32,000 nt of DNA from NCBI RefSeq assembly GCF_000018105.1, contig NC_009925.1, forward strand, positions 3,780,001 to 3,812,000, in the 5' to 3' direction. Both the position numbers and the translations under genes were made by a program. Every line of letters starts with the position of its first letter. Position 1 is the stretch's first letter. Under the pieces are notes generated by a model. That model searched no databases, was not told where the DNA came from, and saw only the letters and a program-made list of their open reading frames with translations. Source of the DNA: Acaryochloris marina MBIC11017. GTDB lineage: Bacteria > Cyanobacteriota > Cyanobacteriia > Thermosynechococcales > Thermosynechococcaceae. Below, piece by piece: positions 1-16,457 of this stretch.

Positions 1-932
1 GGCGTAATCACTCCCCGGTCAAAGGGCTGACCGTTGACCCCAATTCCATTAATCACGAGCTGATGATCATAGACCGCAATCGCGGCAAACCCGAGCGTTG
101 AACTGGCAAAAGCGGTCCATTCTGAAGAGCCTGTGGGCCGCAGTCGGGCTCCCACCCCGCAGGTCAGATAGGTGGTGCCGGCAATGGGCTGGGTTCGCTC
201 ATAATGGTGCTCATGGCCATTGATATAGAGCTGAACCTGGTATTTCGCAAACAGGGGCGTTAACTGCTCTCCTAGACCTGGATGCAGTTTGGGGGTGCCT
301 AGCAATGGCCCTAAGCGCGAAGCTAGCTCCCATTTAATACTGTGTAAGCCCGACGCATAAATCGGATGATGTCCTAGAACAATCTTCCATTGAGCCTGAG
401 ATTGGGCTAGCTCAGCTTCCAGCCATCGTAATTGAGCCGGCCAGTGCCCTCCTGGATTCGTATCTAGGGCAAAAAACTGAACCAAGTCTCGGGTAAAGGT
501 ATAGTAGCGGCCTGCCATATTAAAACCGGGGTAACGAATCTGCCCCTCACCTCGTTGAGACATGACATCGTGATTGCCCAAGACGGCATGGAACGTAATG
601 CCTTGTTGTAGCAAAGGCCCATAGGGTTGCTCGAAAACCTCGCCAATACGCTCCATTTCTCCCCCGTCGTAAATGTTGTCTCCAGCTAGGAGCGCTAACG
701 AGCACGGGTTGTGCTGATGGAATTGGGCCATCGCCTGGGCGACATCATACTGAGCTTGGTCTCCGGTCCCGACATCCCCCACGGCGATAAATTGCCACTG
801 AGGCGTTGGGGTAAGTGAAGCAATGGGGGGCTGAGCCTGTAAAGATTGGGCCAGTATTCGGTGGTGGTTTAAGCCCACACCGACCGTAGACAAACTGGCT
901 AATGTGAGGAATTTTCGACGGTTTAAGGGCAT
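1..932 (-). CDS. Metallophosphoesterase (purple-acid-phosphatase-like) with a twin-arginine signal peptide; the C-terminal end runs off the window
   Basis: Absent from the supplied ORF track because it is edge-truncated. Hand translation of the minus strand from the ATG at 932-930 stays open to position 1 (MPLNRRKFLTLASLSTVGVG...). I checked 1-362 triplet by triplet for stops, and conserved motifs cover the rest. It carries the five calcineurin-like/PAP blocks: GDVGTGD, GDNIY, GNHD, GHHP, GHEHHYE. RRKFL is a Tat motif. Confidence 0.8.
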   Translation of the reverse strand, partial: MPLNRRKFLTLASLSTVGVGLNHHRILAQSLQAQPPIASLTPTPQWQFIAVGDVGTGDQAQYDVAQAMAQFHQHNPCSLALLAGDNIYDGGEMERIGEVFEQPYGPLLQQGITFHAVLGNHDVMSQRGEGQIRYPGFNMAGRYYTFTRDLVQFFALDTNPGGHWPAQLRWLEAELAQSQAQWKIVLGHHPIYASGLHSIKWELASRLGPLLGTPKLHPGLGEQLTPLFAKYQVQLYINGHEHHYERTQPIAGTTYLTCGVGARLRPTGSSEWTAFASSTLGFAAIAVYDHQLVINGIGVNGQPFDRGVIT

Positions 933-1997: not shown

Positions 1998-2798
1998 TTA
2001 TCCCGATTGGGCTCGGGACATGGGCATTTGGCTGGTAGTCGTCCCATCTGCCAAAAAACGATTGGATGGGGGTGAGGTCTGCGACGAATCAGACCTGTAG
2101 GATGGATTGGCATCCATTAAATATCCAAGATTGAGGCGATAGCCCACGTTCCGGACTGTTTGAATCAGTTGAGGCTGTTGGGGATCTTGTTCGATCTTTT
2201 TGCGGAGGGACAAGATATGAGTATCCACCGTTCGGGGATTATCAATACTTTCGGGCCAGGCTCGTTGCAAGAGTTCAACCCGGCTGAGGGCTAGGCCTTC
2301 TGCTTGAACTAAGACATACAGCAGGCTAAATTCCTGGGGAGTGAGATCAACTAGCTCGTTATGGTAGTGAACGCGCCGCTGGATCAAATCAATTCGCAAG
2401 GCACCAAATGAAACCTGCGTCGGCAGGCTGAGGCGGCTGCGTCGGCTCAAAGCCGCAATCCGAGCCAAAAACTCTTGCATCCCAAAAGGCTTACCCACAT
2501 AATCATCTGCACCGGCTTTGAGGCCAGATACGACATCTGCTTCAGTTGTTTGGGCCGACAACATCAAAATCAGGGGATGCTTTTGGCGCTGTAACCATCG
2601 ACAAAGCTCCTGACCCAGGCCATCGGGTAATTCAGAATCAACGATAACCAGATCCGGTTGATGTTGTTGATAGGCAGCCTGAGCTTGCTTGATACTAGCG
2701 CTGAGATGAATAAAATAGCCTACTTGTTGTAGATGCCAACCCAGAAGAGATCGCAAGTGAGGATTAGCCTCAACGATTAGGATGTGGAGTGAGTCCAC
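1998..2798 (-). CDS. OmpR/PhoB-family response regulator with an atypical receiver acidic pocket and a Ser/Pro-rich C-terminal tail
   Basis: The receiver has phospho-acceptor context LVIVDSELPD, LMLSAQ and YVGKPF. The winged-helix output has LTPQEFSLLYVL...RTVDTHILSLRKKI...TVRNVGYRL. The N-terminal acidic pair reads E-A-N (ILIVEANPHL) rather than D-D. Confidence 0.9.
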   Translation of the reverse strand: MDSLHILIVEANPHLRSLLGWHLQQVGYFIHLSASIKQAQAAYQQHQPDLVIVDSELPDGLGQELCRWLQRQKHPLILMLSAQTTEADVVSGLKAGADDYVGKPFGMQEFLARIAALSRRSRLSLPTQVSFGALRIDLIQRRVHYHNELVDLTPQEFSLLYVLVQAEGLALSRVELLQRAWPESIDNPRTVDTHILSLRKKIEQDPQQPQLIQTVRNVGYRLNLGYLMDANPSYRSDSSQTSPPSNRFLADGTTTSQMPMSRAQSG

Positions 2799-2902
2799 GG
2801 AATTTAGGGTCCTGCATTCTGCTACCCCAACGTTAGCAGATAAATTTTCAGGTTTTGGTAACTGTGGTTACGAACAGGCCCAGTAATGAGATTTTGGACT
2901 AT

Positions 2903-2936
2903 AAAAAAGCAGGCCTACCATAGGTTTGACCTGCTT
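2903..2936 (-). terminator. Rho-independent terminator downstream of the 2970-3449 gene
   Basis: On the minus strand, AAGCAGG (2913-2907) pairs with CCTGCTT (2936-2930). The run that follows reads TTTTTT. Confidence 0.55.
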
Positions 2937-2969
2937 GAATGCTTGAATCGATTAAAGGTAAGAGAGGGG

Positions 2970-3449
2970 CTAGGGCTGGTCCTTGGTGGGTTTAATCCAC
3001 ACTAGGTTGCGTTTGTTCTTACGAATAAGATGGCCCTGTTCTTCTGACATGCGTCGGGAGACTTCTGGCACCATGCTCTGTTCGTGGGAGTGCTTGAGGG
3101 CTTCAATATGGGCGGAGGTTCGACTCACTTCCCCTTTGATTTCCTGTAATTTCGCCTCTTGGGTGAGCTGATGAGGCAGCATGTTTCCTAGGGTATAGAG
3201 ACAGCTGCCAATCAAAAGAACGTTGATCCCCAAGACGGTTGCAGTTTCAGTGGTCCGAGCCACAAATTTAGGACGTCTCCGAGGATGGCGTTTTCTCGCA
3301 GACCTCTGCTTCATTTTGCGGGTGGGGCTAGATTTTGGCTGGGATAAAGCACTCATATTTTGTTGGCCTATATAGGCAGCATGATGAATCGGGCTACACC
3401 AATGCCAATCAATTAGCGGCGTTTTTAAAACAGCAAAGACAGAGAACAC
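2970..3449 (-). CDS. Small bitopic membrane protein with a coiled-coil ectodomain; possibly an FtsB/DivIC-like septum-formation-initiator family member (tentative)
   Basis: Basic Arg/Lys-rich N-terminal tail, one TM helix (ATVLGINVLLIGSCLYTLG), then a heptad-like segment (QEAKLQEIKGEVSRTSAHIEALK). The more likely start is the internal Met at 3356 (MSALSQPKSS...). The function call rests on architecture only. Confidence 0.55.
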   Translation of the reverse strand: MFSVFAVLKTPLIDWHWCSPIHHAAYIGQQNMSALSQPKSSPTRKMKQRSARKRHPRRRPKFVARTTETATVLGINVLLIGSCLYTLGNMLPHQLTQEAKLQEIKGEVSRTSAHIEALKHSHEQSMVPEVSRRMSEEQGHLIRKNKRNLVWIKPTKDQP

Positions 3450-3765
3450 AACCTAGAGCGGTCGTTGGGTTAACGTCTGTCTTCTAAAACAGGGAACACC
3501 AAAATCAGAAACCATCTGTTCCCTGGGTAGGGACACATTGGTTTTGCCAGCTCCAAAAATAACGTGATGCACGCAAAATTGGCTCAGTGTGTGGCTAGTG
3601 TAGCGAATAAAACGAAAAAATGTAAATCAATTTGATAGAAATCTTTAGTATTTGTGGATTTTTGTGGCCGCAGAATATTTTCCCTTCTGGCAAATTATTG
3701 AAATCGATGGCTAGAGATACTAGAACTCTCTAGTAGGATGCCATTCTCGTCTTTAAGCTGCAGCC

Positions 3766-3799
3766 AAAAAAAATAGTGCTTTACCTTAGGTAAAGCACT
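3766..3799 (-). terminator. Rho-independent terminator, probably for psaM
   Basis: Minus strand: 11-bp perfect stem AGTGCTTTACC/GGTAAAGCACT with a 3-nt loop, followed by A then an 8-T run. It lies about 95 nt downstream of the psaM stop. Confidence 0.6.
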
Positions 3800-3893
3800 T
3801 GAATTCGTATATTGATTTTGATGACACTGGATCCTTGATTGGAACAGCGGCTAAGGCCACCTGCTAAGGATGCCAGCAATGTGGTCCTAATGC

Positions 3894-3989
3894 TTACTTG
3901 GAGAGGGCACTACCAAGATTAAGTGCCAGCAATGCAGGTAGCAATGCCACAACAAGGGCGATCACAATTTGTAGATCTGATAGTTCCAT
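3894..3989 (-). CDS. psaM: Photosystem I reaction centre subunit XII (PsaM), 31 aa
   Basis: Too short for the ORF track. Hand translation gives MELSDLQIVIALVVALLPALLALNLGSALSK. From memory, this matches the length and pattern of cyanobacterial PsaM (M-x-L-[ST]-D-x-Q-[IV]...ALV[VI]ALLPA.LA..L...L.K). GGAG lies about 10 nt upstream of the ATG, and a terminator lies downstream. Confidence 0.8.
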   Translation of the reverse strand: MELSDLQIVIALVVALLPALLALNLGSALSK

Positions 3990-4252
3990 GAATATCAAAC
4001 TCCATTATTCCCATTCTTATTAGTTTACAATGTCGGCTACTTCGGGCATCAGGAAAATAGATTGTTACATCACTCAACATTGATCATGGGTTTCCATGGT
4101 GAAGGAAGACTCATCTACCGGGGTTTGAACCCCCATAAAGGTCGAATTCAATATCGGCGAAAAACGGGCTTAGGTCTGGATCGCAATGCTTAATATAGTG
4201 TGCAGAAAGGTACACTTTAGCGTTACGTTGAATACCATGGAGACTGTGTGAT

Positions 4253-5113
4253 TTGCTACTGAATTCCACACTCCAAACCCAATCCCTCATTGATTGCCAG
4301 ATGCTAGACCCGTTGTTTGAACTCTCTCCCCAGGTCGGTCTCGACACCGCACTCATTATTTTTATTTTGATTGCTTTAGAGGCTGTACTGTCTGCTGATA
4401 ATGCGATCGCATTAGCGGCATTGGTCAAAGGACTGGAGGATGAAGAGCTTCAGAGTCGTGCCTTAAATATTGGCTTGTTGGCCGCTTTCGCTATGCGGAT
4501 GCTGCTAATTTTTACCGCAACCTGGGTGATTCGATTCTGGCAGTTTGAGCTGTTAGGGGCTTGCTACTTACTATGGCTCGCCTTTCAGTATTTCTTCAAA
4601 GAAGATGATGAACACCATCATCATGGCCCTAAGTTTGCCTCGCTCTGGCAAGCCATTCCAGTGATTGCCGTGACGGATTTGGCGTTTTCATTAGATAGCG
4701 TGACCACTGCCATTGCCCTATCGGATGAGCGTTGGCTCGTTATTACCGGCGGCATTTTTGGGATTATCACGCTTCGATTTATGGCCGGGCTATTTATCAA
4801 GTGGCTAGAAGAGTATATCCATCTGCAGGATGCAGGCTATTTGACGGTAGTGTTGGTGGGATTCCGGCTCCTGCTCAAGGTCATCAATGATGATTTTGTG
4901 CCGCCTCAATGGTCAATGATTTTGGCGATTGCCCTGATCTTTGCCTGGGGATTTTCCAAAAAACGCAATCCCGACGATCCAGAACCTCAAAACCTTGTAG
5001 AGCATGATTCTGAGCGACCTGAATTAGCCAACGAAGTGAGTGACTTTATTCAGGAAGTTCGAGATCTATCCCAACCTGATCCGAAGCCTCAAGCTGTGAA
5101 TGAGCAGATTTAG
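4253..5113 (+). CDS. TerC-family integral membrane protein
   Basis: Multiple TM helices. The TerC signature ALEAVLSADNAIALAALV is present, with a second half-repeat VTDLAFSLDSVTTAIAL. The track start at 4253 is TTG; ATG at 4301 (MLDPLFEL) is an alternative. Confidence 0.85.
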   Translation: MLLNSTLQTQSLIDCQMLDPLFELSPQVGLDTALIIFILIALEAVLSADNAIALAALVKGLEDEELQSRALNIGLLAAFAMRMLLIFTATWVIRFWQFELLGACYLLWLAFQYFFKEDDEHHHHGPKFASLWQAIPVIAVTDLAFSLDSVTTAIALSDERWLVITGGIFGIITLRFMAGLFIKWLEEYIHLQDAGYLTVVLVGFRLLLKVINDDFVPPQWSMILAIALIFAWGFSKKRNPDDPEPQNLVEHDSERPELANEVSDFIQEVRDLSQPDPKPQAVNEQI

Positions 5114-5172: not shown

Positions 5173-5823
5173 CTACCCTTGCTGGTGGCGATAATTGACG
5201 AGCAGATATCCCAGAATTTGGAGGCCGCCTCCCACTAGACCAACTCCCAGAATAAGGGGCAATGAGCTGGAGAGGGTCAGCCACCAACCATCCGAAATTA
5301 AGATATCTTCCTGGCGTTGGCCACTGGGACGATAGGTGATACGCCTCGGCCACTCCTTCAGCCTGTAGCGATATGGGCCGACAGCAGTCGTTTGCGGTCT
5401 AGAGGTCTGGCAAAAACCTGGGAGTGGTTGATCGTCAACCCAGACAAATTTCCCTTGCTGTAGTTTGTAGAACGGTTTTTTGGAATAGGGGGTGACTAAA
5501 AGTATTGGATGCTCTCCCCCACCACAAAGTGTCAGCTCTCCCTTAATGGAAGGAGTGGCAATGCTGGTTTGAAAGGTGCCGTTGGTATCGAAGATTTGGA
5601 TACGCCCTAATACCTGAGAGAACACATATAGGTGCTTTGGGTGGTTGGTATTGGGGAGTGCGATCGCAGATGCCCCCACCAACGGAGCAGGTTGAGTGAG
5701 TGGTGTTCGCTGAATTAGAATCCCTTGGGCGATACAGAAAGCCATCAGGCCAATCAACCCCCAGCTACACACCCACATCACCCTTAAAAGCTGGTTTTTC
5801 GGTATCCGCTTTGGAATTCTCAT
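5173..5823 (-). CDS. Hypothetical membrane protein (N-terminal TM, beta-rich middle domain, C-terminal TM segment)
   Basis: 216-aa ORF. Its ATG overlaps the upstream sirtuin stop codon as ATGA (5823-5820). Hydrophobic segments: VMWVCSWGLIGLMAFCIAQGILI and WWLTLSSSLPLILGVGLVGGGLQILGYLLV. I recognise no family. Confidence 0.7.
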   Translation of the reverse strand: MRIPKRIPKNQLLRVMWVCSWGLIGLMAFCIAQGILIQRTPLTQPAPLVGASAIALPNTNHPKHLYVFSQVLGRIQIFDTNGTFQTSIATPSIKGELTLCGGGEHPILLVTPYSKKPFYKLQQGKFVWVDDQPLPGFCQTSRPQTTAVGPYRYRLKEWPRRITYRPSGQRQEDILISDGWWLTLSSSLPLILGVGLVGGGLQILGYLLVNYRHQQG

Positions 5824-6548
5824 TTGAGTAGTGTGGGGAGGATCTCTTCTGCTGCCCCTACAATGACCTCGTGAAAATAAGGATTGGGCTCAGAGGGGGC
5901 TTCCAGATTAATCAGGATCGTGTGGGCTCCAACATAATCGGCTGAGCGAACAAAACTAGCGGCAGGCTGCACCGTGCCAGAGGTGCCAATCGCTAGAAAT
6001 AAATCACAATCTCGAAGGGCCTTTTTGCTTTGCCAGGATGCATCTAGGGGAATGGGTTCCTCGAATAAGACAACATTGGGTAACTGATGGGCATGGCAGA
6101 CGGAGCATTGAGGCATCTGATCGGCATGGGTGGCTTGATCTGCAAAGACAGGGGCATCGCAGGCAGAATTTGAACAGCGGGTCTCTAGGAGCGATCCATG
6201 CAGTTCCACAACGTTTTGGCTGCCTGCCCGTTGGTGTAGTCCATCAATATTTTGCGTGATCAGGGTGAATTGTTGAGATGGGGTCAAATTTTGTTCGAGA
6301 TCCGCCAGGGCTTGGTGAGCCGCATTGGGAGCCGCTGACGCCACAACTTTACGCATAGCCCCCAAAGTTTGCCAAATAAAACCAGGATTATTTTGCCCAG
6401 CCTCGGCATTGAGCTGATCAGCCGAAATTTCGTTCCAGACCCCGTTTGGTCCCCGAAAAGGACGAATCCCTGAGGCAACAGAAATCCCGGCACCAGTCAG
6501 AATAACAATGCGTGAGTAGGCCGCTAAATTTAGTTCCGTCAAGGGCAT
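5820..6548 (-). CDS. cobB: NAD-dependent protein deacylase, Sir2/CobB family
   Basis: GAGISVASGIRPFRG, TQNIDGLH, catalytic His in ELHGSL, and a Zn-ribbon built from the cysteines in RCSNSAC and CSVCH. Confidence 0.9.
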   Translation of the reverse strand: MPLTELNLAAYSRIVILTGAGISVASGIRPFRGPNGVWNEISADQLNAEAGQNNPGFIWQTLGAMRKVVASAAPNAAHQALADLEQNLTPSQQFTLITQNIDGLHQRAGSQNVVELHGSLLETRCSNSACDAPVFADQATHADQMPQCSVCHAHQLPNVVLFEEPIPLDASWQSKKALRDCDLFLAIGTSGTVQPAASFVRSADYVGAHTILINLEAPSEPNPYFHEVIVGAAEEILPTLLK

Positions 6549-7896: not shown

Positions 7897-8568
7897 TTAA
7901 TCGGATGCCGTCTCCCTTGGTCGAGCCAACAGCAGGGACTGGAAGATCAGGCAGACGGCTAACCAAACCAAGCCTGCTGCATAGCCAGCCACCACGTCAG
8001 TGGGCCAATGAACGCCAATATAGAGGCGACTAAATCCAATGGTGGCAATCAGACTCGTGCCCACGGCCACCATCAACAACCGGAAGGAGCGAAACTGGCG
8101 AATTAAACCGTAGACCAGAACGGCATAGAAAACTAGAGAGACCATGGCATGGCCGCTGGGGAAACTATAGAAGGGCACCTGCAAAATTTGGTCCCAGAGG
8201 GCGGGGCGATGACGGGCAAATAGCTCTTTGAGCCAGATATTGAGTCCCAAGGAGCCCCCAATCGCGATCACAAAACCTAGGGCTTCTTGGCGTCGTTTTT
8301 GCCACAACAAGATCCCTCCCATCGCCAAGGTGAAGGGGAACAGAATCAGGGGTTCACCAAGATAGGTCACTAGCACCATCAGCCGATCTAAGGTCGGCGT
8401 GTGGAAATGGTGAATGGCCAGCAAAATCTGGGTGTCTAGGGTTTCAATTTGGGGAAGAAGAGTTGCGATCGCAACAAACAGACCGAAAGCTAATCCCGTT
8501 ACCACCATTCCCCAGCGCTGCCAGGGCGAACGGACCGATTGGCTTTGCTGAATCAGCCATTTCAACAT
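7897..8568 (-). CDS. PAP2-family (phosphatidic acid / undecaprenyl-PP type) membrane phosphatase
   Basis: The three PAP2 motifs are present: KELFARHRP, PSGH and SRLYIGVHWPTD. There are multiple TM helices. Confidence 0.85.
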   Translation of the reverse strand: MLKWLIQQSQSVRSPWQRWGMVVTGLAFGLFVAIATLLPQIETLDTQILLAIHHFHTPTLDRLMVLVTYLGEPLILFPFTLAMGGILLWQKRRQEALGFVIAIGGSLGLNIWLKELFARHRPALWDQILQVPFYSFPSGHAMVSLVFYAVLVYGLIRQFRSFRLLMVAVGTSLIATIGFSRLYIGVHWPTDVVAGYAAGLVWLAVCLIFQSLLLARPRETASD

Positions 8569-8673
8569 AGAGAGATTAAAGCAACGTCAAAGGAGCAGGC
8601 AGACGGCCTACAAACTTAACTGTACGTTATATACCTTAACGTCGGTTTAATGGCTGCTTATGAACGGGTTGTC

Positions 8674-9102
8674 TTAGTCAGCTTTAGCATCGACCGCATA
8701 TTGTTTGAGATCCTCAAGGGAGACATGCTCCAGGGCCATGGCATGGGTGGCGGCTAACTTCACGGGGGGCGCGACACCTGCTTCTAAAGCTTGTTGCCAG
8801 CGAGAGGCACATAAACACCAGCAGTCACCGGGCTTCAGACCAGGGAACCCATAAATGGGAGCTGGACTACTTAAATCATTGCCTTGAGCTTGGGTATAGG
8901 CCAAAAACTCAGCGGTAACTTGGGCGCAGACAATATGAGCCCCCATATCTCCGGCGCCAGTATTACACTTTCCATCCCGATAAAATCCCGTCATGGGCGA
9001 AGTGCAGCAAATCTGTAAGGGGCCTCCCAGTACATTGGTGGCTTCTGTCTTCATGGCTTTTGTCATTCCCTTTGCTCCAACAGCCTGGCTTAGACAAACC
9101 AT
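8674..9102 (-). CDS. DUF2237-family protein
   Basis: NVLGGPLQICCTSPMTGFYRDGKCNTG...HIVCAQVTAEFL...PGLKPGDCWCLCASRW matches my recollection of the DUF2237 Cys-rich pattern. The true start may be an internal Met at 9066 or 9054. Confidence 0.75.
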   Translation of the reverse strand: MVCLSQAVGAKGMTKAMKTEATNVLGGPLQICCTSPMTGFYRDGKCNTGAGDMGAHIVCAQVTAEFLAYTQAQGNDLSSPAPIYGFPGLKPGDCWCLCASRWQQALEAGVAPPVKLAATHAMALEHVSLEDLKQYAVDAKAD

Positions 9103-9613
9103 AGCAGGTCCTCTCTTCTCAGGTAAAAAAGTTCAGGGCCGAGACCTCAAGAAAGAGTGTGGAGATCGTGAATGCATAAAAATCGTAAAATTAGTAGATA
9201 AGTTAGTAACGATTTTAGGAAAAAATGAGTTATATACTCTCTTCTATCTTGTGCTTATATGAGGTCTGCAATTAATAGCTTAAAATCGCTATAGTTAAAT
9301 ATCTATATTAGTTCTAGCTTTTTGTCTGTAAATCATGATTTTATTAAAAATTTCTATGAGTTAGTAGAAGAAGGTCGAAATATTCTCTTTATAAAAATAT
9401 TTATTGTGTTGGATTTTTGGCATATAAGGAATCGATTTGGGCTGGGCTAAAGAATGAATAACTCAGTCTTTGCAGTAGCCGTTAAATATCTGCAGAATGA
9501 GTCAAGAAAGACAACGGCAGCGTCAGGGCTCACCCTTGTGAGTTGATCAAGCAAACCGTTTAGGGTACTTGCCCTGAGAGAAGTGATGGAGAAACAGGCA
9601 TTTGGCAATCGGT

Positions 9614-11227
9614 ATGGGAATGCAGCGCAGACAGTTTTTACGCTTTGGGGGCACAGTCTTGCTGACCCTCGTGGCTTCTCCCAGGTCCTTCGCGAAATCC
9701 GTTGATGACATTCGCAAAATCGCCCGACAGATCACCGTCAAAATCCTGACTCAAGGGCCGTCTGGGTCGGGGATCTTGATTCAGAAAAAGGGGCCTATCT
9801 ATACGGTGCTGACAGCCGCCCATGTGATCAAAAATTCAAATCGTGGGGAAGAAGCCTATGCCATGACGAGTGATGGTGAGAATCACTTGCTGGATACCCA
9901 AGCCATGAAGACTGGCTCTAACTTAGATCTTGCGATCGCAACCTTCTACAGCAATAAAACCTATGGCGTGACTGATGTCGGTCAATTTAAAGCCCTCGAT
10001 ATTTTGGATGAAATCTATGTGGGAGGGTATCCCTTAGCGGATCAAGGTATATCCGTCTCGACGATCACGCTGACTCGGGGAGAGGTCGCTTCGATTGGCC
10101 CCTTTGAGGATGGCTATGGGTTTTCCTATACTGCGGTAACCAAAGCGGGGATGAGTGGTGGTCCCATCCTCAATCAGGCGGGCCAGCTTATCGGCGTTCA
10201 TGGTCGAGCAGCAGGACAGCGATTGAAACAGTTTCGGCTCAAGGACGGCCTGAATTTGGGGATTCCCATCGACACCGCCATCGAGGTATTTGGGTTGAAG
10301 ACCCTCGCCCCAACGGTGGCGCAACCTGACGAACCGGAGCCTCAATCGGCTGAGACGGATCCGCCAGAGGAAGAGCCTTCCAGTCCTTCACCAGATTCCC
10401 CTTTGGTGAGCTTCACCTTTGAAGTGCTGGGGGTCAATGACAAAGGCCAGGTGCGTAAACGGATGCAACAGTCGGCCCAATCTTATCGCCAACCCCTGGT
10501 GGGTGGAGTGGCCTTGGAGATGGTGGCTATTCCCGGGGGACAGTTCACGATGGGCTCGCCAGTAACCGAAACCCATCGTGAGAAAAACGAAGATCCGAAA
10601 CATGTTGTGGATGTCCCGGCGTTTTTGATGGGGAAGTATCCCATTACCCAAGCCCAGTGGCAGGCCATTATGGGGGACAATCCCTCTAAGTTTCAGGGGG
10701 CCAATCATCCCGTCGATCAAGTTAGCTGGTTTTTAGCGGAAGAGTTTTGCCAGAAACTGTCTTTGGCGACGGGGCAAGACTATCGGCTGCCCAGTGAAGC
10801 CGAATGGGAATATGCCGCCCGAGCGGGTACCGATACCCCGTTTCACTTCGGTCAGACCATCACCACCGATCTGGCCAATTATGATGGCAATTACGCCTAT
10901 GACAAAGGCCCCAAGGGCACCTTCAGAAAAAAGACGGTTCCGGTGGACCAGTTGGCCGGGAATGCCTTTGGGTTGTTCAATATGCATGGTCAGGTTTGGG
11001 AATGGTGTCTAGACCATTGGCATGACACCTATGACGGTGCGCCTAGGGATGGTACGGCCTGGGTTGAGCAGGGTGACCCAAAAATGCGCCGAGTGCGGCG
11101 AGGCGGATCCTGGTATGACAGTCCCCATGCCTGCCGATCTGCATTTCGCTACCGATCCTATCCCTATGCCTATACGGGGTCTTTTGGTTTGCGCGTGGTT
11201 CTGCCTGCCCTAAATCAAACGGTGTAG
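9614..11227 (+). CDS. Tat-signal trypsin-like serine protease fused to a C-terminal FGE-like (SUMF1/EgtB/PvdO-fold) domain, paralog 1
   Basis: Signal peptide MGMQRRQFLRFGGTVLLTLVASPRSFA. Chymotrypsin-fold triad: TAAHV (His codon 9821-9823), DLAIA (Asp 9926-9928), GMSGGP (Ser 10154-10156). A Pro/Glu-rich linker follows. The FGE-like domain has LEMVAIPGGQFTMGS, RLPSEAEWEYAARAG and RRGGSW. The track start at 9602 is TTG; I chose ATG 9614 by homology to paralog 2. Confidence 0.9.
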   Translation: MGMQRRQFLRFGGTVLLTLVASPRSFAKSVDDIRKIARQITVKILTQGPSGSGILIQKKGPIYTVLTAAHVIKNSNRGEEAYAMTSDGENHLLDTQAMKTGSNLDLAIATFYSNKTYGVTDVGQFKALDILDEIYVGGYPLADQGISVSTITLTRGEVASIGPFEDGYGFSYTAVTKAGMSGGPILNQAGQLIGVHGRAAGQRLKQFRLKDGLNLGIPIDTAIEVFGLKTLAPTVAQPDEPEPQSAETDPPEEEPSSPSPDSPLVSFTFEVLGVNDKGQVRKRMQQSAQSYRQPLVGGVALEMVAIPGGQFTMGSPVTETHREKNEDPKHVVDVPAFLMGKYPITQAQWQAIMGDNPSKFQGANHPVDQVSWFLAEEFCQKLSLATGQDYRLPSEAEWEYAARAGTDTPFHFGQTITTDLANYDGNYAYDKGPKGTFRKKTVPVDQLAGNAFGLFNMHGQVWEWCLDHWHDTYDGAPRDGTAWVEQGDPKMRRVRRGGSWYDSPHACRSAFRYRSYPYAYTGSFGLRVVLPALNQTV

Positions 11228-11347
11228 AGGACTGGCTTTGGGGAGAGAATGCGCTAATATCCGTATCACCCTTCTAATCCGAGACATTCCCAAATAGAGC
11301 GGATACAGTAGGAATAAGGGTTTTGCAGCGTATTGATATAGGTTGGA

Positions 11348-12967
11348 ATGGGCATCAAGCGTCGACAGTTTTTGTGGTTCGGGGGGACTGCTGTAATCAG
11401 CTTGGCCTCGTCCCAATGGTCTTTCGCCAAATCAGTTCGGGATATTCGCCAAATTGCCCGTCACATTACCGTTCGCATTATGACCCAAGGCCCTTCTGGC
11501 TCCGGGGTGTTAATCAAGCGAAATGACAATATCTACACCGTACTGACGGCGGCCCATGTGATCAAAAACTCCAACCGGGGTGAGGAAGCCTATGTGGAAA
11601 CCTATGACGGTGAAACCCATCTCCTCAATACCCAAATGATGCAGGTGGATGTCAAAGCGGATATTGCGATCGCAACCTTCACTTCCAGCAACAACTATCG
11701 CACCACCAACATTGGCAAGTTTAAAGACCTGGGCATTTTGGATGACATTTATGTCGGTGGTTATCCCCTAGCCGATCAGGCCATTTCCGTCTCCACCATG
11801 ACCCTAACTCGGGGCGAAGTGGCCTCCATTGGTGAATTTGAGGATGGCTATGGGTTTTCCTACACGGCCGTCACCAAGGCAGGCATGAGCGGTGGCCCAG
11901 TGTTAGATCGCGAAGGTCGCCTAATTGGGATTCATGGTCGGGCGGCGGGACAGCGCTTACAAGACGTGCGGATTAAAGATGGTTTGAATTTAGGGATTCC
12001 GATCTCAACTGCGATCGCAACCTTTGGTCTCGACAATCAGTACCGGCCCCTGACCGCTGAGCAACCGGATACATCTGAACCCCAGACCTCTGAACCCTCT
12101 GAACCGGAGTCCACCCAAGCGCCACCGGAGGAGACTCTGCCCGGCCTCTCTCGGTTTGCCTTTGAAGTGGTGGCAGTGAATGCCCAAGGTCAAATCCAAA
12201 CCCGCAGCCGTCAGTCTGCCCAATATTATCGCCAGCAGCTAAAACAAGATCAGACCCTGGATATGGTCTATATCCCTGGGGGAAAATTTAGTATGGGCTC
12301 TCCGGCAACGGAAGCCAATCGTCAAGGCAGTGAAGGTCCCCAACACCTGGTCACAGTTCCCACCTTTTTTATTGGCAAATATCCGATTACCCAAGCCCAA
12401 TGGCAGGCCGTGATGGGGGAGAATCCGGCCAAGTTTCAGGGGGCAGATCGTCCCGTCGAGCAAGTGAGCTGGCAGGCCGCGACGGAGTTTTGCCAAAAAC
12501 TATCGGAACTCACGGGCCAGGACTATCGTTTACCCAGCGAAGCAGAATGGGAATATGCTGCTCGTGCCGGGACTAGCGCACCCTTCTGTGTGGGGGCTAC
12601 CCTGACCACGGACTTAGCCAACTACGACGGCAACTATACCTATGGTCGCGGTCCGCGGGGCACCTTTCGCAAGGCCACAACTCCCGTTGGTCAATTTTCA
12701 CCCAACCCCTTTGGTCTTTATGACATGCATGGCCAGGTCTGGGAATGGTGTCAAGATCATTGGCATGACACCTACAAAGGGGCACCTGCGGATGGATCGG
12801 CCTGGGTGAAGGATACGGATGTGCGATCGCACCGAGTCAGACGAGGAGGATCTTGGTACGACGGTCCCCATGCCTGCCGGTCCGCCTTTCGCTATCGGTC
12901 ATTACCGAGTAACTATCAAAACTCCTATGGCCTGAGAGTGGTCTGCCAAGAGTTTAAGGATATTTAG
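11348..12967 (+). CDS. Tat-signal trypsin-like serine protease fused to a C-terminal FGE-like domain, paralog 2
   Basis: Signal peptide MGIKRRQFLWFGGTAVISLASSQWSFA. The protein is collinear with paralog 1 over its full length, sharing TAAHV, DIAIA, GMSGGP, a Pro/Glu linker, LDMVYIPGGKFSMGS, RLPSEAEWEYAARAG and RRGGSW. Confidence 0.9.
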   Translation: MGIKRRQFLWFGGTAVISLASSQWSFAKSVRDIRQIARHITVRIMTQGPSGSGVLIKRNDNIYTVLTAAHVIKNSNRGEEAYVETYDGETHLLNTQMMQVDVKADIAIATFTSSNNYRTTNIGKFKDLGILDDIYVGGYPLADQAISVSTMTLTRGEVASIGEFEDGYGFSYTAVTKAGMSGGPVLDREGRLIGIHGRAAGQRLQDVRIKDGLNLGIPISTAIATFGLDNQYRPLTAEQPDTSEPQTSEPSEPESTQAPPEETLPGLSRFAFEVVAVNAQGQIQTRSRQSAQYYRQQLKQDQTLDMVYIPGGKFSMGSPATEANRQGSEGPQHLVTVPTFFIGKYPITQAQWQAVMGENPAKFQGADRPVEQVSWQAATEFCQKLSELTGQDYRLPSEAEWEYAARAGTSAPFCVGATLTTDLANYDGNYTYGRGPRGTFRKATTPVGQFSPNPFGLYDMHGQVWEWCQDHWHDTYKGAPADGSAWVKDTDVRSHRVRRGGSWYDGPHACRSAFRYRSLPSNYQNSYGLRVVCQEFKDI

Positions 12968-12989: not shown

Positions 12990-15900
12990 CTAACCCACTA
13001 ACTCCGGGGTCTTCTGGTCAATCAATCCTGCTAGGGTATCGAGTAACTCCTGCTCGTTAAAGGGCTTGGAGAAATAAGCCGACGCACCCAAATTCATGGC
13101 CACCTTGCGGTGTTTTTCGTGACTGCGAGAGGTCAGCATCACAATCGGCAAGTCTTCAAACTGAAGTTGGCCTTTGACTTCTTCCAGTACGCCATAGCCA
13201 TCCAAGCGAGGCATTTCAATATCACAAACCACTGCCTGTACAGCTAAGCCGCTTTCCAGTTTGTCCACGGCTTCTTGGCCATCCTTGGCCTGTTCAACCT
13301 GATAGCCCGCTTTTTCTAGGGTCAGGGCTAAGAAACGACGGACATTAACAGAGTCATCCACCACCAGGATGGTATTGTCTGAGCTGACGGAGGGCAGAGA
13401 TTCGATGGGAGGCGTGATGTCGGTTTGTTGTCGTTCCAGGGACCATTTGAGAATGGACAAGGGGTCGAGGATGGGGACCACGCGACCGTCCCCTAAGACA
13501 GTAGAACTTACAAATCCGGGGGGCATGGGTAAGGGGCTGGCGATGTCGCGAATGGTTACTTCCTGTTCACCCCAGAACCGTTCAATTTCTAGGCCACCGA
13601 TCTGGTCATCCTCCCCAACTACGAGAATAGTGGGTTTGTTAATAACCGGAGTCCCGGACATTTCGGAGAATCGGCGGGTTTGATTAAAGGCCCAATGCTG
13701 AGCCAAGTTGATGATGGGAATGGAGCGATCTTGCCAGGTCAACGTGTGAGACGCTTCGATCCTTTGAATTTGGTCTGATTGCAATTGCAAAAGTTCGCAA
13801 ATGCTTTCACTCGGCACCGCAAAGATGAATCCTGAATGCTCGAGCAGCATGACGCGCAAAATTGAGAGGGTATAGGGAACTGAAATGGTGAAGGTGGTGC
13901 CTACACTCTGTTCAGTATGGACCTGAATTTCACCTCGGATGTCGCGAAGATTGTTGCGCACAACATCCATGCCGACGCCGCGTCCAGAGATTTCAGTCAC
14001 TTGGTCCGCTGTACTAAAGCCCGGTTCAAAAATACAGTCTAATAAATCGGCTTCAGAGAGTTGAGAGACTTCCCACTCCGGAATGCCCATGGCCTGCAAA
14101 CGATCACGGACCTTATCAAGGCGAATCCCTGCACCATCATCGCTCAGGGTAATGACTGTTTGTGCCCCTCGATTACGGGCTTGAATCGTAATCGTGCCTT
14201 TTGGCGCTTTGCCAATGGAAGTCCGGCGTTCCTGGCTGCCAATCCCATGATCAAAGGCATTACGAAGTAGATGATTAAGGGCATCTCCTAGGGGGTCCAG
14301 TACTGCTCGGTCAATCAGGGTGGCGTCCCCTTCCATCAACAGGTTGACCGGCTTATTAAACTGAACGCTCAAGTCTCGAATCATCCGGGGAAACCGTTTG
14401 ACGATTTCTCGGAAAGGCACCATCTGGGTGCGGGTGACATTCGTCTGCAATGAGCGGGTGGTTTGGTTAATATCGCGGACCGCCTGACCCATATCCTGTA
14501 GGGTCAGTTCAATATCGGAACCCACCTCTTGTAACTGAACAATCGTTTCGATTTGGTCTTGGGCAATCAGGTGCAAGTCCGTATACTGGTCCATTTCTAG
14601 GGCATCAAATTGCCCGGATCTGGGCTCAGCCAGTTGTTCGGGTTGAGCGGGAGCGGCTTCTTCGGCAGGGACGATGCCTTCCATAGAGGCGCGGTCGTAC
14701 CATTGCTGAAGTTGTGTATTGGAGGCTTCTAACTGACGAATCCGCTGTCGAATCAGTTGGGTGTAGGCTTGCAACTGCTCAAAACGCAAATTGACCGTAT
14801 TCCGATCTAGAATCAACTTCCCAAACAGGGTATTAAATTGCTCCAGTTGTTCCACGGGAACCCGCACCGTTTTACCGCTGAGGGGCTTCACGGGAGCAGC
14901 AGAAGGCTGGGCTGCCGTGGTTTGTTCCAAAATTTGAGCCGCACTCTCCAGGGTTAAGGGGAGATCAGCAACTTCTTCTTTGATTGTTGAGTCTGCCGTA
15001 GATTCAACCAGATCGGAAGTCACTTCAAAGGCCTGCTGTAGATCCGCTAGCTCCACCGAATCCTGCAGATTGGCGAGGGCATCTGCGTTTAACAAGTCTT
15101 CTGGCGCAAAGTCATCAGTAGCGATTTCGGCAGGAAATTCCAGCGCTGGCTCGGGCAACTCGACTGATAAGGCATCGGCTAAGTTGGCGATTGCTGGATC
15201 ATCTAGAGCAATGTTCTCGAAATTGACCGCTTCTGGTGCTTCAGGACCAGGTAGATTCATGGCTAAATCATCCGCTAGATCAGCGACAGCCGAATCCTCA
15301 AGGGCCACATTCTCCAGATTGACCGCTTCTGGTGCTTCAGGACTAGGCAGATCCGTGGCTAAAGCATCCGCTAGATCAGCGACAGCCGGATCATCAAGGG
15401 TAATCTCTTCTAGCGCTTCGGCGTTAGGCAGATCGGTGGCTAGGGCATCTGCTAAGTGGGCAACAGCCGGATCATTAAAATCAAGGTCTTCTATGGGGTC
15501 CGCTTCTATCGATTCAGGATTAGGTAGATCCGTTCCTAAAGCACCTGCGAGATCGGCGACAGGGGCATCCTCTAGGTTAATCTCTCCTGGCAACTCAATG
15601 GTACCAAAGTCAGCTTGCAGAGCTGATAGGTCGACGGAGCCAAGGGCAGTTTCAAAGTCGGCTTCGGGGCTGGAGGCCATCGTTGGCGTAAAGTCCAGCA
15701 GTTCATGGGGGAGCTTCTCGAAACTGCGGCGCAGGACCAGCGCATGGGACCGTCGCCAGGTTTTGAGGGCGGCCATTGAGAGTTCAGGAATCTGCTCCGG
15801 CACGACCTGGGTCGCCAGTTCCTGGATTGATTGGCAGAGCTGAATAAAAGAGTCTAAATTGGCCATATGGCCGAAGGCCACCAATTCTTCGGCGGTCATC

Positions 15901-16457
15901 GCGAGTTCAGCCGCTAGTTGAGGGGCTGGCAAGGTGCCAAAATAGCCTTCAATGCGATCGAGAACAGCTTCCACCCCATCCTCAAACATAAGTAACGCTG
16001 GATCGATTTCCTCTTCGCCACCACTGAGAAGTGCATTTTCGTCTGCATCTGTTACCTCGCCCAAATGGGTCTGCAGTTGGTCGAAGACGGGGGTGATATG
16101 GGCAGCCATCCAGTCAGCATCAATGTCAGCCCCTTGCTGATAGCGATCGCCTACTTGTCGTAAGCAGTCTAAGCCCTGCAACAGGAGGGTTTCTACCTCT
16201 GTTGCGATGATTTTGGAGGCATGGTGTACCCGCAGAATCTTGAAAAAATCTTCCAGACGGTGGGCCACTTTACTCAGATCCATCAGCCCCATCATCGCCG
16301 CCCCCCCTTTGACAGAGTGGGAGGCTCTGAGCGCTTCATCGAGTTGTTCGGGGTCTGCTGCGTTGGTGGCTAGACCCAGCAAAACGCGTTCAATCTTTTC
16401 GTAGCAGTCTTCCGCTTCTTCGAGAAATTTGAACTGGACTTGTTGTTCTTTATCCAT
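12990..16457 (-). CDS. Hybrid CheA-like histidine kinase with a C-terminal receiver (PilL/HmpE/PixL-type)
   Basis: N-terminal Hpt domain (SHSVKGGAAMMG, His47), an acidic repeat linker, and HATPase boxes (NHLLRNAFDHGI, DDGAGI, GRGVGMDVV). A CheW-like P5 domain follows, then the receiver (ILVVDDSVNVRR...VVCDIEMPRLDG...YFSKPF). Confidence 0.93.
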   Translation of the reverse strand: MDKEQQVQFKFLEEAEDCYEKIERVLLGLATNAADPEQLDEALRASHSVKGGAAMMGLMDLSKVAHRLEDFFKILRVHHASKIIATEVETLLLQGLDCLRQVGDRYQQGADIDADWMAAHITPVFDQLQTHLGEVTDADENALLSGGEEEIDPALLMFEDGVEAVLDRIEGYFGTLPAPQLAAELAMTAEELVAFGHMANLDSFIQLCQSIQELATQVVPEQIPELSMAALKTWRRSHALVLRRSFEKLPHELLDFTPTMASSPEADFETALGSVDLSALQADFGTIELPGEINLEDAPVADLAGALGTDLPNPESIEADPIEDLDFNDPAVAHLADALATDLPNAEALEEITLDDPAVADLADALATDLPSPEAPEAVNLENVALEDSAVADLADDLAMNLPGPEAPEAVNFENIALDDPAIANLADALSVELPEPALEFPAEIATDDFAPEDLLNADALANLQDSVELADLQQAFEVTSDLVESTADSTIKEEVADLPLTLESAAQILEQTTAAQPSAAPVKPLSGKTVRVPVEQLEQFNTLFGKLILDRNTVNLRFEQLQAYTQLIRQRIRQLEASNTQLQQWYDRASMEGIVPAEEAAPAQPEQLAEPRSGQFDALEMDQYTDLHLIAQDQIETIVQLQEVGSDIELTLQDMGQAVRDINQTTRSLQTNVTRTQMVPFREIVKRFPRMIRDLSVQFNKPVNLLMEGDATLIDRAVLDPLGDALNHLLRNAFDHGIGSQERRTSIGKAPKGTITIQARNRGAQTVITLSDDGAGIRLDKVRDRLQAMGIPEWEVSQLSEADLLDCIFEPGFSTADQVTEISGRGVGMDVVRNNLRDIRGEIQVHTEQSVGTTFTISVPYTLSILRVMLLEHSGFIFAVPSESICELLQLQSDQIQRIEASHTLTWQDRSIPIINLAQHWAFNQTRRFSEMSGTPVINKPTILVVGEDDQIGGLEIERFWGEQEVTIRDIASPLPMPPGFVSSTVLGDGRVVPILDPLSILKWSLERQQTDITPPIESLPSVSSDNTILVVDDSVNVRRFLALTLEKAGYQVEQAKDGQEAVDKLESGLAVQAVVCDIEMPRLDGYGVLEEVKGQLQFEDLPIVMLTSRSHEKHRKVAMNLGASAYFSKPFNEQELLDTLAGLIDQKTPELVG
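15123..15581 (-). repeat. In-frame tandem repeats (period about 96 bp, 27-32 aa) inside the CheA linker
   Basis: There are five copies of the core D-[PS]-A-[VI]-A-x-L-A-x-x-L-x-x-x-L-P. The 24-mer TTGACCGCTTCTGGTGCTTCAGGA occurs at both 15223-15246 and 15319-15342, exactly 96 bp apart. Confidence 0.85.

Follow-up and report, generated by a model that had tools for sequence, protein, structure and literature searches.

Trypsin-FGE tandem genes of Acaryochloris marina MBIC11017: a rare variant of a modular family of cyanobacterial S1 peptidases

Introduction

Domains related to the formylglycine-generating enzyme (FGE-like domains, PF03781) are among the most abundant unexplained modules of cyanobacterial genomes. 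The catalytic Cu(I)-binding cysteines of true FGEs are Cys336 and Cys341 in the human enzyme and Cys269 and Cys274 in that of T. curvata; we know of no ligand for any non-enzymatic FGE-like domain. Domains of the FGS/CLec type are classic targets of diversity-generating retroelements (DGRs). FGS domains keep a strict syntax, in which they always stand C-terminal to their partners. A survey of cyanobacterial DGRs describes kinases and orthocaspases as partners of CLec domains, and no trypsin fusion (PMC7517822). Here we describe two adjacent genes of Acaryochloris marina MBIC11017, AM1_3737 and AM1_3738 (genes 1 and 2 in the following), each of which encodes a trypsin-like protease joined to an FGE-like domain behind a twin-arginine-type signal. 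Both genes lie in a stretch of 32,000 nucleotides (contig NC_009925.1, positions 3,780,001 to 3,812,000 of the forward strand), which was analysed as a whole and is referred to as the window. Judged by sequence comparison, the pair is a rare Trypsin-FGE variant within a large and modular family of cyanobacterial S1 peptidases, which bear signal peptides and have interchangeable C-termini.

Domain architecture and the modular protease family

Each of the two genes encodes the four parts that the original prediction had read from the letters alone, namely an RRQFL signal, a Trypsin_2 protease domain, a Pro/Glu-rich linker and an FGE-sulfatase domain (Table 1). Profile hidden Markov model (HMM) searches with Pfam place both domains in a single polypeptide in either copy, with scores far over the Pfam gathering scores and with a full-length match to PF03781. 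The triad of the protease, predicted to be intact, consists of His70, Asp105 and Ser181 (gene-1 numbering, as in the following), all of which are invariant in a 30-sequence family alignment. Residues ~30-230 of an AlphaFold2 (AF2) model, run on a 30-sequence alignment, were compared with solved structures by Foldseek and match DegQ, DegP, DegS-deltaPDZ and HTRA1 (TM-score on target up to 0.78). No PDZ domain was found with Pfam in either protein. The linker has a length of ~35-40 residues, of which 75-81% are P, E, S, T, Q or D, and is 39% identical between the two copies; the model shows it as disordered (predicted local distance difference test, pLDDT, ~30).

The protease domain alone was searched exhaustively with phmmer against 1.84 billion cluster representatives, resulting in 4870 matches at E <= 1e-3 and 211 matches at E <= 1e-30. 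The best 150 representatives carry one to three protease copies each. An FGE-like domain occurs in a single one of them (P0044, standing for the Trypsin-FGE family), and a twin-arginine-type signal in four; the other N-termini inspected are Sec-like, i.e. of the general secretory type. Ten relatives sampled among these 150 were assigned C-terminal partners with Pfam: TPR (P0213, P0233 and P0352), WD40 (P0345), FG-GAP (P0283), GUN4 (P0251), COP23 (P0212) and FKBP_C (P0218), with no partner detected in P0224 and P0293. The features that unite this unnamed secreted Trypsin_2 family, namely an export signal, a homologous protease whose mature N-terminus is conserved as well, and a C-terminal module that varies, are all present in AM1_3737 and AM1_3738. 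The range of the Trypsin-FGE architecture is narrow, comprising mainly Acaryochloris, a few filamentous cyanobacteria (Oscillatoria princeps, Okeania) and some metagenome sequences.

The pair had been regarded as an uncharacterised system. The genes are indeed uncharacterised and carry a generic annotation, and a literature search on the locus tags AM1_3737 and AM1_3738 found no mention of them, all matches being string collisions with PFAM13737 and pfam13738. They are, however, not a one-off but a variant of the S1 family described above, and the question of how common the architecture is has a twofold answer: the fusion is rare, whereas the protease family that hosts it is large.

We note several features of individual relatives. 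P0218 (367 aa) starts with MGIKRRQVLLF, a twin-arginine-like signal similar to that of the Acaryochloris pair, and has a protease of 45% identity, followed by a peptidyl-prolyl isomerase of the FKBP type in place of the FGE-like domain; this fusion hints at a role in extracytoplasmic protein quality control. Among the stand-alone secreted relatives, P0142, P0148 and P0157 end in ...C-x-G-R-R-C, and P0151, P0162 and P0181 in ...LPFGF, ...RRILPF and ...GLFGF, respectively. These short conserved C-terminal motifs look like sorting or anchoring signals.

The FGE-like domain

Gene 2 was aligned to the T. curvata FGE structure 6s07, and positions were carried over to gene 1 by alignment. The stretch GGSWYDGPHAC of gene 2 pairs with GGSFLCHESYC of the enzyme, and therefore the first Cu-binding cysteine of true FGEs is replaced by aspartate (Asp502). 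In the 30-sequence alignment this position varies between Asp/Glu, Ser, Ala, Asn and Gly; the second cysteine (Cys507) is invariant. The nearest solved structures by sequence are PvdO (5HHA, E = 8e-38) and Treponema TvpA (2Y3C, 5e-23), followed by true FGEs (~1e-17), and Foldseek on the AF2 model returns the three in the same order, with a TM-score on target of ~0.6 for the FGE structures. Ahead of the domain lies a beta-structured stretch of about 35 residues (FxFEVxxVNxxGQ...). Since the first copper ligand is lost and the closest solved relatives are PvdO and TvpA, the C-terminal domain is most likely a non-catalytic binding module and not an FGE. Its assignment to the type that is fused to kinases and caspases in cyanobacteria agrees with an identity of 50-60% to the FGE domains of such fusions. 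The pattern LPSEAEWE is common to FGE domains in general: a contig scan with the family alignment returned FGE-only loci (L001-L080), with no Acaryochloris locus among the matches listed.

More specific enzyme families fit less well. The PvdO equivalog NF051459 reaches 143-163 bits (cut-off 500), the EgtB model TIGR03440 reaches 67-69 bits (cut-off 360), with the FGE-like part alone being aligned, and the SenA, OvoA and GldK equivalog models remain far below their cut-offs. A DinB-type domain as in EgtB and OvoA was not found with Pfam and HMM searches in either protein, nor was a siderophore (pyoverdine) cluster, the setting of PvdO, found in the window.

Diversification by a DGR was considered as well. 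A. marina MBIC11017 is reported to possess a DGR in which an insertion element disrupts the reverse transcriptase (RT), the pair of variable region (VR) and template repeat (TR) being intact (PMC3521204, Fig. 4B); the target of this DGR could be another FGE-like paralog. Neither an RT nor a TR-like repeat in the form of a third copy was found in the window. The 35 residues equivalent to the VR, at 11099-11203 in gene 1 (Table 1) and 12842-12946 in gene 2, constitute the most conserved stretch among orthologs, with identities of 0.86-1.00; the domain cores reach 0.79-0.96 and the linker 0.22-0.88. Between the paralogs the stretch is 77% identical, i.e. variation is not elevated. From the search of the window and the ortholog comparison, AM1_3737 and AM1_3738 are therefore rejected as present-day DGR targets. 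Genes encoding MoxR, vWA, VMAP/iSTAND/STAND and EAD proteins were sought in the window and in ten related loci (L081-L090), and none was found; with its components absent from all loci examined, membership in a vWA-MoxR/STAND ternary conflict system (Kaur et al. 2020) is rejected, too.

Export signals

The N-termini of both proteins follow the pattern M-G-x-x-R-R-Q-F-L...S-F-A-K. In the family alignment an RRxFL motif of this RRQFL type is found at residue 5 in 20 of the 20 core family members, followed by S-F/L-A↓K (the arrow denotes the putative cleavage site). The h-region is rich in Gly, Ser and Thr and weakly hydrophobic, with a 19-residue Kyte-Doolittle maximum below 1.6, and the c-region of gene 1 contains an arginine. 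A twin-arginine motif of the S/T-R-R-x-F-L-K type, a weak h-region and an A-x-A-like cleavage site, the hallmarks of signals for the twin-arginine translocation (Tat) pathway, are thereby all present. A Kyte-Doolittle scan detected no transmembrane-grade and no second hydrophobic segment in the Acaryochloris proteins.

A word-index search yielded seven shorter protease relatives, six stand-alone proteins of ~270-320 aa and the TPR-bearing P0145, all of which have Sec-type signals. The N-terminus of the mature proteins reads A↓K-T/S-A-K-E-V-A-K-I-A..TV.I and has its homologue in A↓K-S-V-R-D-I-R-x-I-A..TV.I of the Acaryochloris pair. Because RRxFL is kept in all core members, and because relatives have Sec signals and distant fusions either lipoprotein or Sec signals, an extracytoplasmic location of AM1_3737 and AM1_3738 is well supported by family comparison. 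Export would lead to the periplasm or the thylakoid lumen, and the Tat route is the probable one.

The distant Trypsin_2-FGE fusions differ among each other in this respect. P0094 carries a lipobox and is free of internal hydrophobic segments. A Sec signal is found in P0074, together with a clear transmembrane helix between the two domains (Kyte-Doolittle 2.34), followed by KANKKR. P0098 (encoded at positions 8001-9758 of locus L085) and P0111 have lipoboxes and a marginal hydrophobic segment between the domains (1.69-1.76), and in P0088 the inter-domain segment is below the hydrophobicity threshold. In the fusions with a transmembrane segment (P0074 clearly, P0098 and P0111 marginally), the protease is predicted to face outward, with the FGE-like domain being cytoplasmic, the opposite of the Tat-type proteins of Acaryochloris. 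Possibly, folding in the cytoplasm is a requirement of FGE-like domains, which would then either be exported in the folded state by Tat or be kept inside through a stop-transfer helix, as in P0074, P0098 and P0111.

History of the duplication

The identity of the two proteins, estimated by eye at two thirds to three quarters, amounts to 67% (359/533). The DNA differs at many synonymous positions, as had been pointed out for the TAAHVIKNSNRGEEAY block, in which 8 of 48 nucleotides differ, all of them synonymously. According to the Nei-Gojobori method, synonymous sites are saturated (proportion of synonymous differences, pS, = 0.74), with a nonsynonymous divergence (dN) of 0.26 and a dN/dS ratio of ~0.07. 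The values bear out the original prediction of an old duplication with both copies under purifying selection. Identical residues share the same codon in 45% of cases, and the longest identical nucleotide run comprises 26 nt; hence no recent gene conversion has taken place.

A neighbour-joining tree with bootstrap resolves three clades: the gene-2 orthologs (100%), the gene-1 orthologs (95%), and a clade (90%) to which, among others, the single-copy proteins P0007 and P0010 as well as P0011 of A. thomasi belong. The latter clade joins gene 1 with 72% support. Gene 1 is the positional ortholog of the single-copy gene, and gene 2 the derived tandem copy with an ortholog clade of its own. A second Acaryochloris paralog clade (~50% identity; P0026, P0035-P0040 and P0044) consists of single genes in unrelated neighbourhoods.

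Synteny was compared across the ten related loci, of which L083 and L086 duplicate their neighbours. The tandem pair is found between DUF2237/PAP2/NDK genes and a CheA cluster in L081 (Acaryochloris sp. 'Moss Beach') and L090 (IP29b_bin.148), and both proteins are encoded on the same contigs in CCMEE 5410 and in three Logan assemblies. In L089 the single copy P0007 occupies the identical slot, with TerC, DUF6348, NDK, PAP2 and DUF2237 genes upstream and convergent CheA/MCP/CheW genes downstream. L082/L083 also have a single copy; the DUF2237/PAP2 genes are kept upstream, and rpsU and ilvC are found downstream. The downstream context of L088 is different again, and the gene is located at the contig start with its upstream side unseen. 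Since the single copy of L089 fills the same slot as the pair in L081 and L090, the duplication is ancient and occurred in situ in the A. marina lineage. Either it predates the split from the lineages with a single copy, in which copy 2 was subsequently lost, or copy 2 has evolved faster.

Proposed function and alternatives

The proteins follow the general build of an export signal, a protease of the S1/HtrA fold, a flexible linker and a variable C-terminal interaction module. We propose, at roughly even chance, that AM1_3737 and AM1_3738 are exported S1 endopeptidases with a tethered, non-catalytic FGE-like lectin-fold domain that binds a ligand and targets the protease to its substrates. The C-type-lectin-fold domain, of the PvdO/TvpA type, would bind a protein, peptide or glycan ligand and, once bound, would bring the tethered protease to particular substrates or sites of the cell envelope or orient it toward them, analogous to the role of PDZ domains in HtrA/Deg proteases. 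Export through Tat would allow the FGE-like domain to fold before transport. Following the ancient tandem duplication in situ, both copies have been kept under purifying selection, implying non-redundant specificities or a hetero-oligomer.

Several observations speak against this proposal. The claim of a Tat signal stands with respect to the motif, found in both proteins and throughout the core family, but not with respect to profile HMMs: the short and weak Pfam model TAT_signal (PF10518) scores 14 bits for gene 1 (E = 0.049; gathering score 22.7) and does not match gene 2, and the equally short and weak model TIGR01409 matches neither protein. Sec export, or an N-terminus kept as an anchor, would be compatible with the computations as well. 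The predicted cytoplasmic FGE-like domains of P0074, P0098 and P0111 make a single location-specific ligand hard to reconcile with the family as a whole. The AF2 model is moderate, with a mean pLDDT of 67 and values below 50 for residues 406-445 and 499-510 of the FGE-like domain, and is therefore adequate for fold assignment, but not for inspection of a binding site or domain interface. The comparison with HtrA is limited, too: HhoA/HtrA/DegP models, with cut-offs of 416-470, give 27-38 bits and are surpassed by the PADLOC models of LmuA-type and RT-Protease defence proteases (45-50 bits), so that 'HtrA-like' describes a fold and not membership. Finally, the NCBI family name, 'SUMF1/EgtB/PvdO family nonheme iron enzyme', together with the strong similarity to PvdO leaves room for an enzymatic C-terminal domain.

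One alternative, already contained in the original prediction, is a ligand-gated sensor-protease, in which a ligand on the FGE-like domain would allosterically activate the protease, similar to the PDZ-bound peptide in DegS, with the paralogs acting as a sensor pair or a hetero-oligomer. The DegS-like fold of the protease and the position of the FGE-like domain, which takes the place of PDZ, would fit such a mechanism, as would the maintenance of both copies by purifying selection; moreover, FGS/CLec domains have been proposed as sensors in cyanobacterial conflict systems. Yet no inter-domain interface is predicted, and the connecting linker is compositionally biased and poorly conserved. Related proteases are joined to TPR, WD40, FKBP, GUN4 and COP23 modules, a generic tethered-module design rather than a co-evolved allosteric pair. 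We favour tethered targeting over an allosteric gate because the linker is long, disordered and fast-evolving and the C-terminal modules are interchangeable among relatives, and regard gating as unlikely, though worth keeping in mind.

Alternatively, the C-terminal domain may be a real enzyme, either a PvdO/EgtB-like oxidoreductase or an FGE-like peptide-modifying oxidase, coupling proteolysis with the oxidative modification of an exported peptide or metabolite. PvdO is the best match in both sequence and structure, the NCBI name implies an iron enzyme, and Cys507, one of the two FGE cysteines, is invariant. Tat substrates often carry cofactors, and the need for a cofactor would explain the use of this route. 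Conversely, the first Cu-binding position is an aspartate here and variable in the family, the iron-binding DinB domain of EgtB and OvoA is missing, equivalog scores are far under their cut-offs, and no biosynthetic genes are found nearby in any locus examined. The invariant motif GGSW...C(R/P)xAxR, furthermore, also occurs in the CLec domain of TvpA, a DGR variable protein. We consider an enzymatic function improbable, and the NCBI name probably misleading for these two proteins, a modest but real consequence for annotation.

A more far-reaching reading, and one that we would rate as quite doubtful, is an extracytoplasmic pattern-sensing protease system, in which the two diverged lectin-fold domains sense different ligands, from the envelope or of foreign origin, and thereby license the proteases tethered to them, perhaps within a hetero-oligomer, and in which the Tat-or-stop-transfer folding rule applies family-wide. 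If true, it would constitute a new kind of Tat-dependent, lectin-gated cell-envelope protease.

Very improbable is a conflict or immunity component, or a relic thereof, made up of a trypsin-like effector and an FGS 'antigen sensor', with the A. marina DGR perhaps acting on it from a distance: the scores against LmuA-type and RT-Protease models, the TvpA-like domain with an N-terminal extension made up of beta structure throughout, typical of DGR-linked FGS domains, and the DGR itself with its disrupted RT and intact VR/TR pair may be cited in its favour, but the scores are read as generic Trypsin_2 similarity because there is no defence context, the conserved VR-equivalent and the absence of RT, template repeat, MoxR, vWA, STAND and EAD genes from the window and near the homologs examined point elsewhere, the genes reside in stable housekeeping synteny, and export signals are present, unlike in most described systems.

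The Acaryochloris pair offers a simple study case for FGE-like domains, being two-domain, soluble, probably exported and outside DGR and NTPase systems, with the protease as a built-in read-out. A ligand found here could be informative for the far larger set of FGS 'sensors' that are linked to kinases, caspases and STAND proteins. The Trypsin-FGE architecture is rare, but both of its themes, the FGS domain as a C-terminal module and the modular secreted protease, are already established patterns; AM1_3737 and AM1_3738 are hence a well-delimited candidate for ligand discovery, and not a surprising new system. The comparison also brings to light a large family of cyanobacterial S1 proteases, secreted and so far unstudied, whose C-terminal modules can be swapped and to which the FKBP fusion belongs. 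In the envelope or lumen, these proteases may be a counterpart to the quality-control proteases of the Deg/HtrA type.

Gene coordinates and genomic neighbourhood

The features of the locus are compiled in Table 1. An alternative start of gene 1, a TTG at 9602, would extend the protein to 541 aa. The spacer upstream of gene 1 is AT-rich, as originally described, with a GC content of 36% (28% in the core, 9150-9450) as compared to 54% in the two genes. It contains a weak sigma-70-like match at 9280-9309, not above shuffled expectation, and a GGAGA motif at ~9588-9592 ahead of gene 1; promoter and terminator scans gave nothing above shuffled expectation, and an Rfam scan of the window matched no family. 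In L081, PAP2 and the first trypsin-FGE gene are separated by an inserted PAF-acetylhydrolase-like gene and an inserted Transposase_mut gene (2196-4720), and a DUF2237 gene is not called at this place; the spacer ahead of the pair is thus a site of rearrangement. No terminator-like site on the + strand was found between the two genes (11228..11347), and co-transcription is therefore possible.

Table 1. Coordinates of the tandem genes, their domains and the adjoining features (positions in the window, unless given in amino acids, aa).
Feature	Position	Strand	Description
Upstream spacer	9103..9613	+	separates the divergent DUF2237 gene from gene 1; presumed promoter site
Gene 1 (AM1_3737)	9614..11227	+	537 aa from ATG; 100% identical to ABW28727.1/WP_041659917.1
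Gene 1, signal region	9623..9694	+	Q-R-R-Q-F-L-R, h-region FGGTVLLTLVASP, c-region R-S-F-A, then K
Gene 1, Tat-like signal	aa 1-27		
Gene 1, protease	aa ~29-232		S1/HtrA fold
Gene 1, Trypsin_2	aa 51-195		Pfam, E = 5e-20
Gene 1, linker	aa ~230-266		P/E-rich
Gene 1, C-terminal part	aa ~266-530		beta extension and FGE-like C-type-lectin-fold domain
Gene 1, FGE-sulfatase	aa 302-529		Pfam, E = 1e-51
Gene 1, equivalent of DGR variable region/FGE active-site loop	11099..11203	+	aa 496-530: RGGSWYDSPHACRSAFRYRSYPYAYTGSFGLRVV
Inter-gene spacer	11228..11347	+	120 bp; GC 0.45
Gene 2 (AM1_3738)	11348..12967	+	539 aa; same four parts as gene 1; 100% identical to ABW28728.1
Gene 2, signal			RRQFL...SFA↓K
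Gene 2, Trypsin_2	aa 51-195		Pfam, E = 8e-23
Gene 2, FGE-sulfatase	aa 305-532		Pfam, E = 4e-56
Hybrid CheA (Hpt-HATPase-CheW-REC)	12990..16457	-	convergent neighbour, outside the feature

Downstream of the pair, the hybrid CheA gene is the first gene of a cluster encoding PatA-like, CheY, CheW, MCP and CheA proteins. The distance between its stop and that of gene 2 is exactly 22 bp, the value given before. A functional link to this chemotaxis-like cluster was considered and rejected: the orientation is convergent, and the adjacency, kept in L081, L089 and L090, is absent in L082/L083 and L088. It is inherited synteny and not an operon. The hybrid CheA gene contains three diverged copies of a 96-nt repeat (15168-15536, starting at 15168, 15264 and 15441) with 69-76% identity to the reference copy. 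The repeats code for acidic units of the DPAVADLADALATDLP kind in the stretch that separates the Hpt domain from the kinase domain.

Two further regions of the window are worth mentioning. Between TerC and DUF6348 (5173-6548, - strand), an open reading frame of 216 aa without Pfam match overlaps by 4 bp with a SIR2-family gene of 242 aa. The gene pair is an insertion relative to the L089 lineage, as the position is empty in the syntenic L089; PADLOC models did not match it. At 23017-26580 (+ strand) a protein of 1187 aa is encoded, with predicted coiled coils (GAS, CENP-F and crescentin-like matches) and a C-terminal BRCT domain. Its gene contains internal repeats (25165-26059), and the AT skew of the region is strongly positive (~0.3).

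Comparison with known systems

The FGE-like domain is closest to PvdO, the periplasmic pyoverdine-maturation protein of Pseudomonas (5HHA), with 33% identity (Foldseek) and a TM-score on target of 0.71. PvdO is periplasmic, a location that is probable for the pair as well, and also lacks the FGE cysteine pair; it differs in being a single-domain protein of a siderophore cluster without an equivalent of Cys507, and the Acaryochloris pair scores well short of its equivalog cut-off and has no such cluster. With true FGEs (SUMF1; T. curvata, S. coelicolor) the pair has PF03781 and the overall fold in common, whereas aspartate replaces the first of the two Cu(I)-binding cysteines and no sulfatase partner is encoded nearby. 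The TvpA-type FGS/CLec domains of DGR variable proteins and of cyanobacterial kinase-, orthocaspase- and vWA-FGS fusions (Kaur et al. 2020, Vallota-Eastman et al. 2020, Dore et al. 2024) likewise stand C-terminal to their partner and share GGSW...CRSAxR...GFRV. The Acaryochloris domain, in contrast, is not hypervariable, is found outside any DGR/MoxR/vWA/STAND context, has an S1 protease as its partner, and is probably exported rather than (mostly) cytosolic.

With respect to the protease, the HtrA/Deg family (DegP, DegQ, DegS and HTRA1, as well as the cyanobacterial HhoA, HhoB and HtrA) also comprises extracytoplasmic serine proteases of the chymotrypsin fold with a GxSGG motif and a C-terminal binding domain. 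The Acaryochloris pair differs by the absence of PDZ, the weak sequence similarity and a signal of the Tat type instead of the Sec type; it resembles HtrA in design without being a member. The unnamed secreted S1 (Trypsin_2) family, with examples such as P0148 of Nostoc muscorum, P0151 of Planktothrix, P0212, P0218 and P0251, is itself uncharacterised, and within it the pair stands apart by its FGE-like partner and its twin-arginine-type signal. The proteases form one clade with 33-51% identity, the homologous mature N-terminus begins right after the signal peptide, and the proteins share a common syntax of signal, protease, linker and module.

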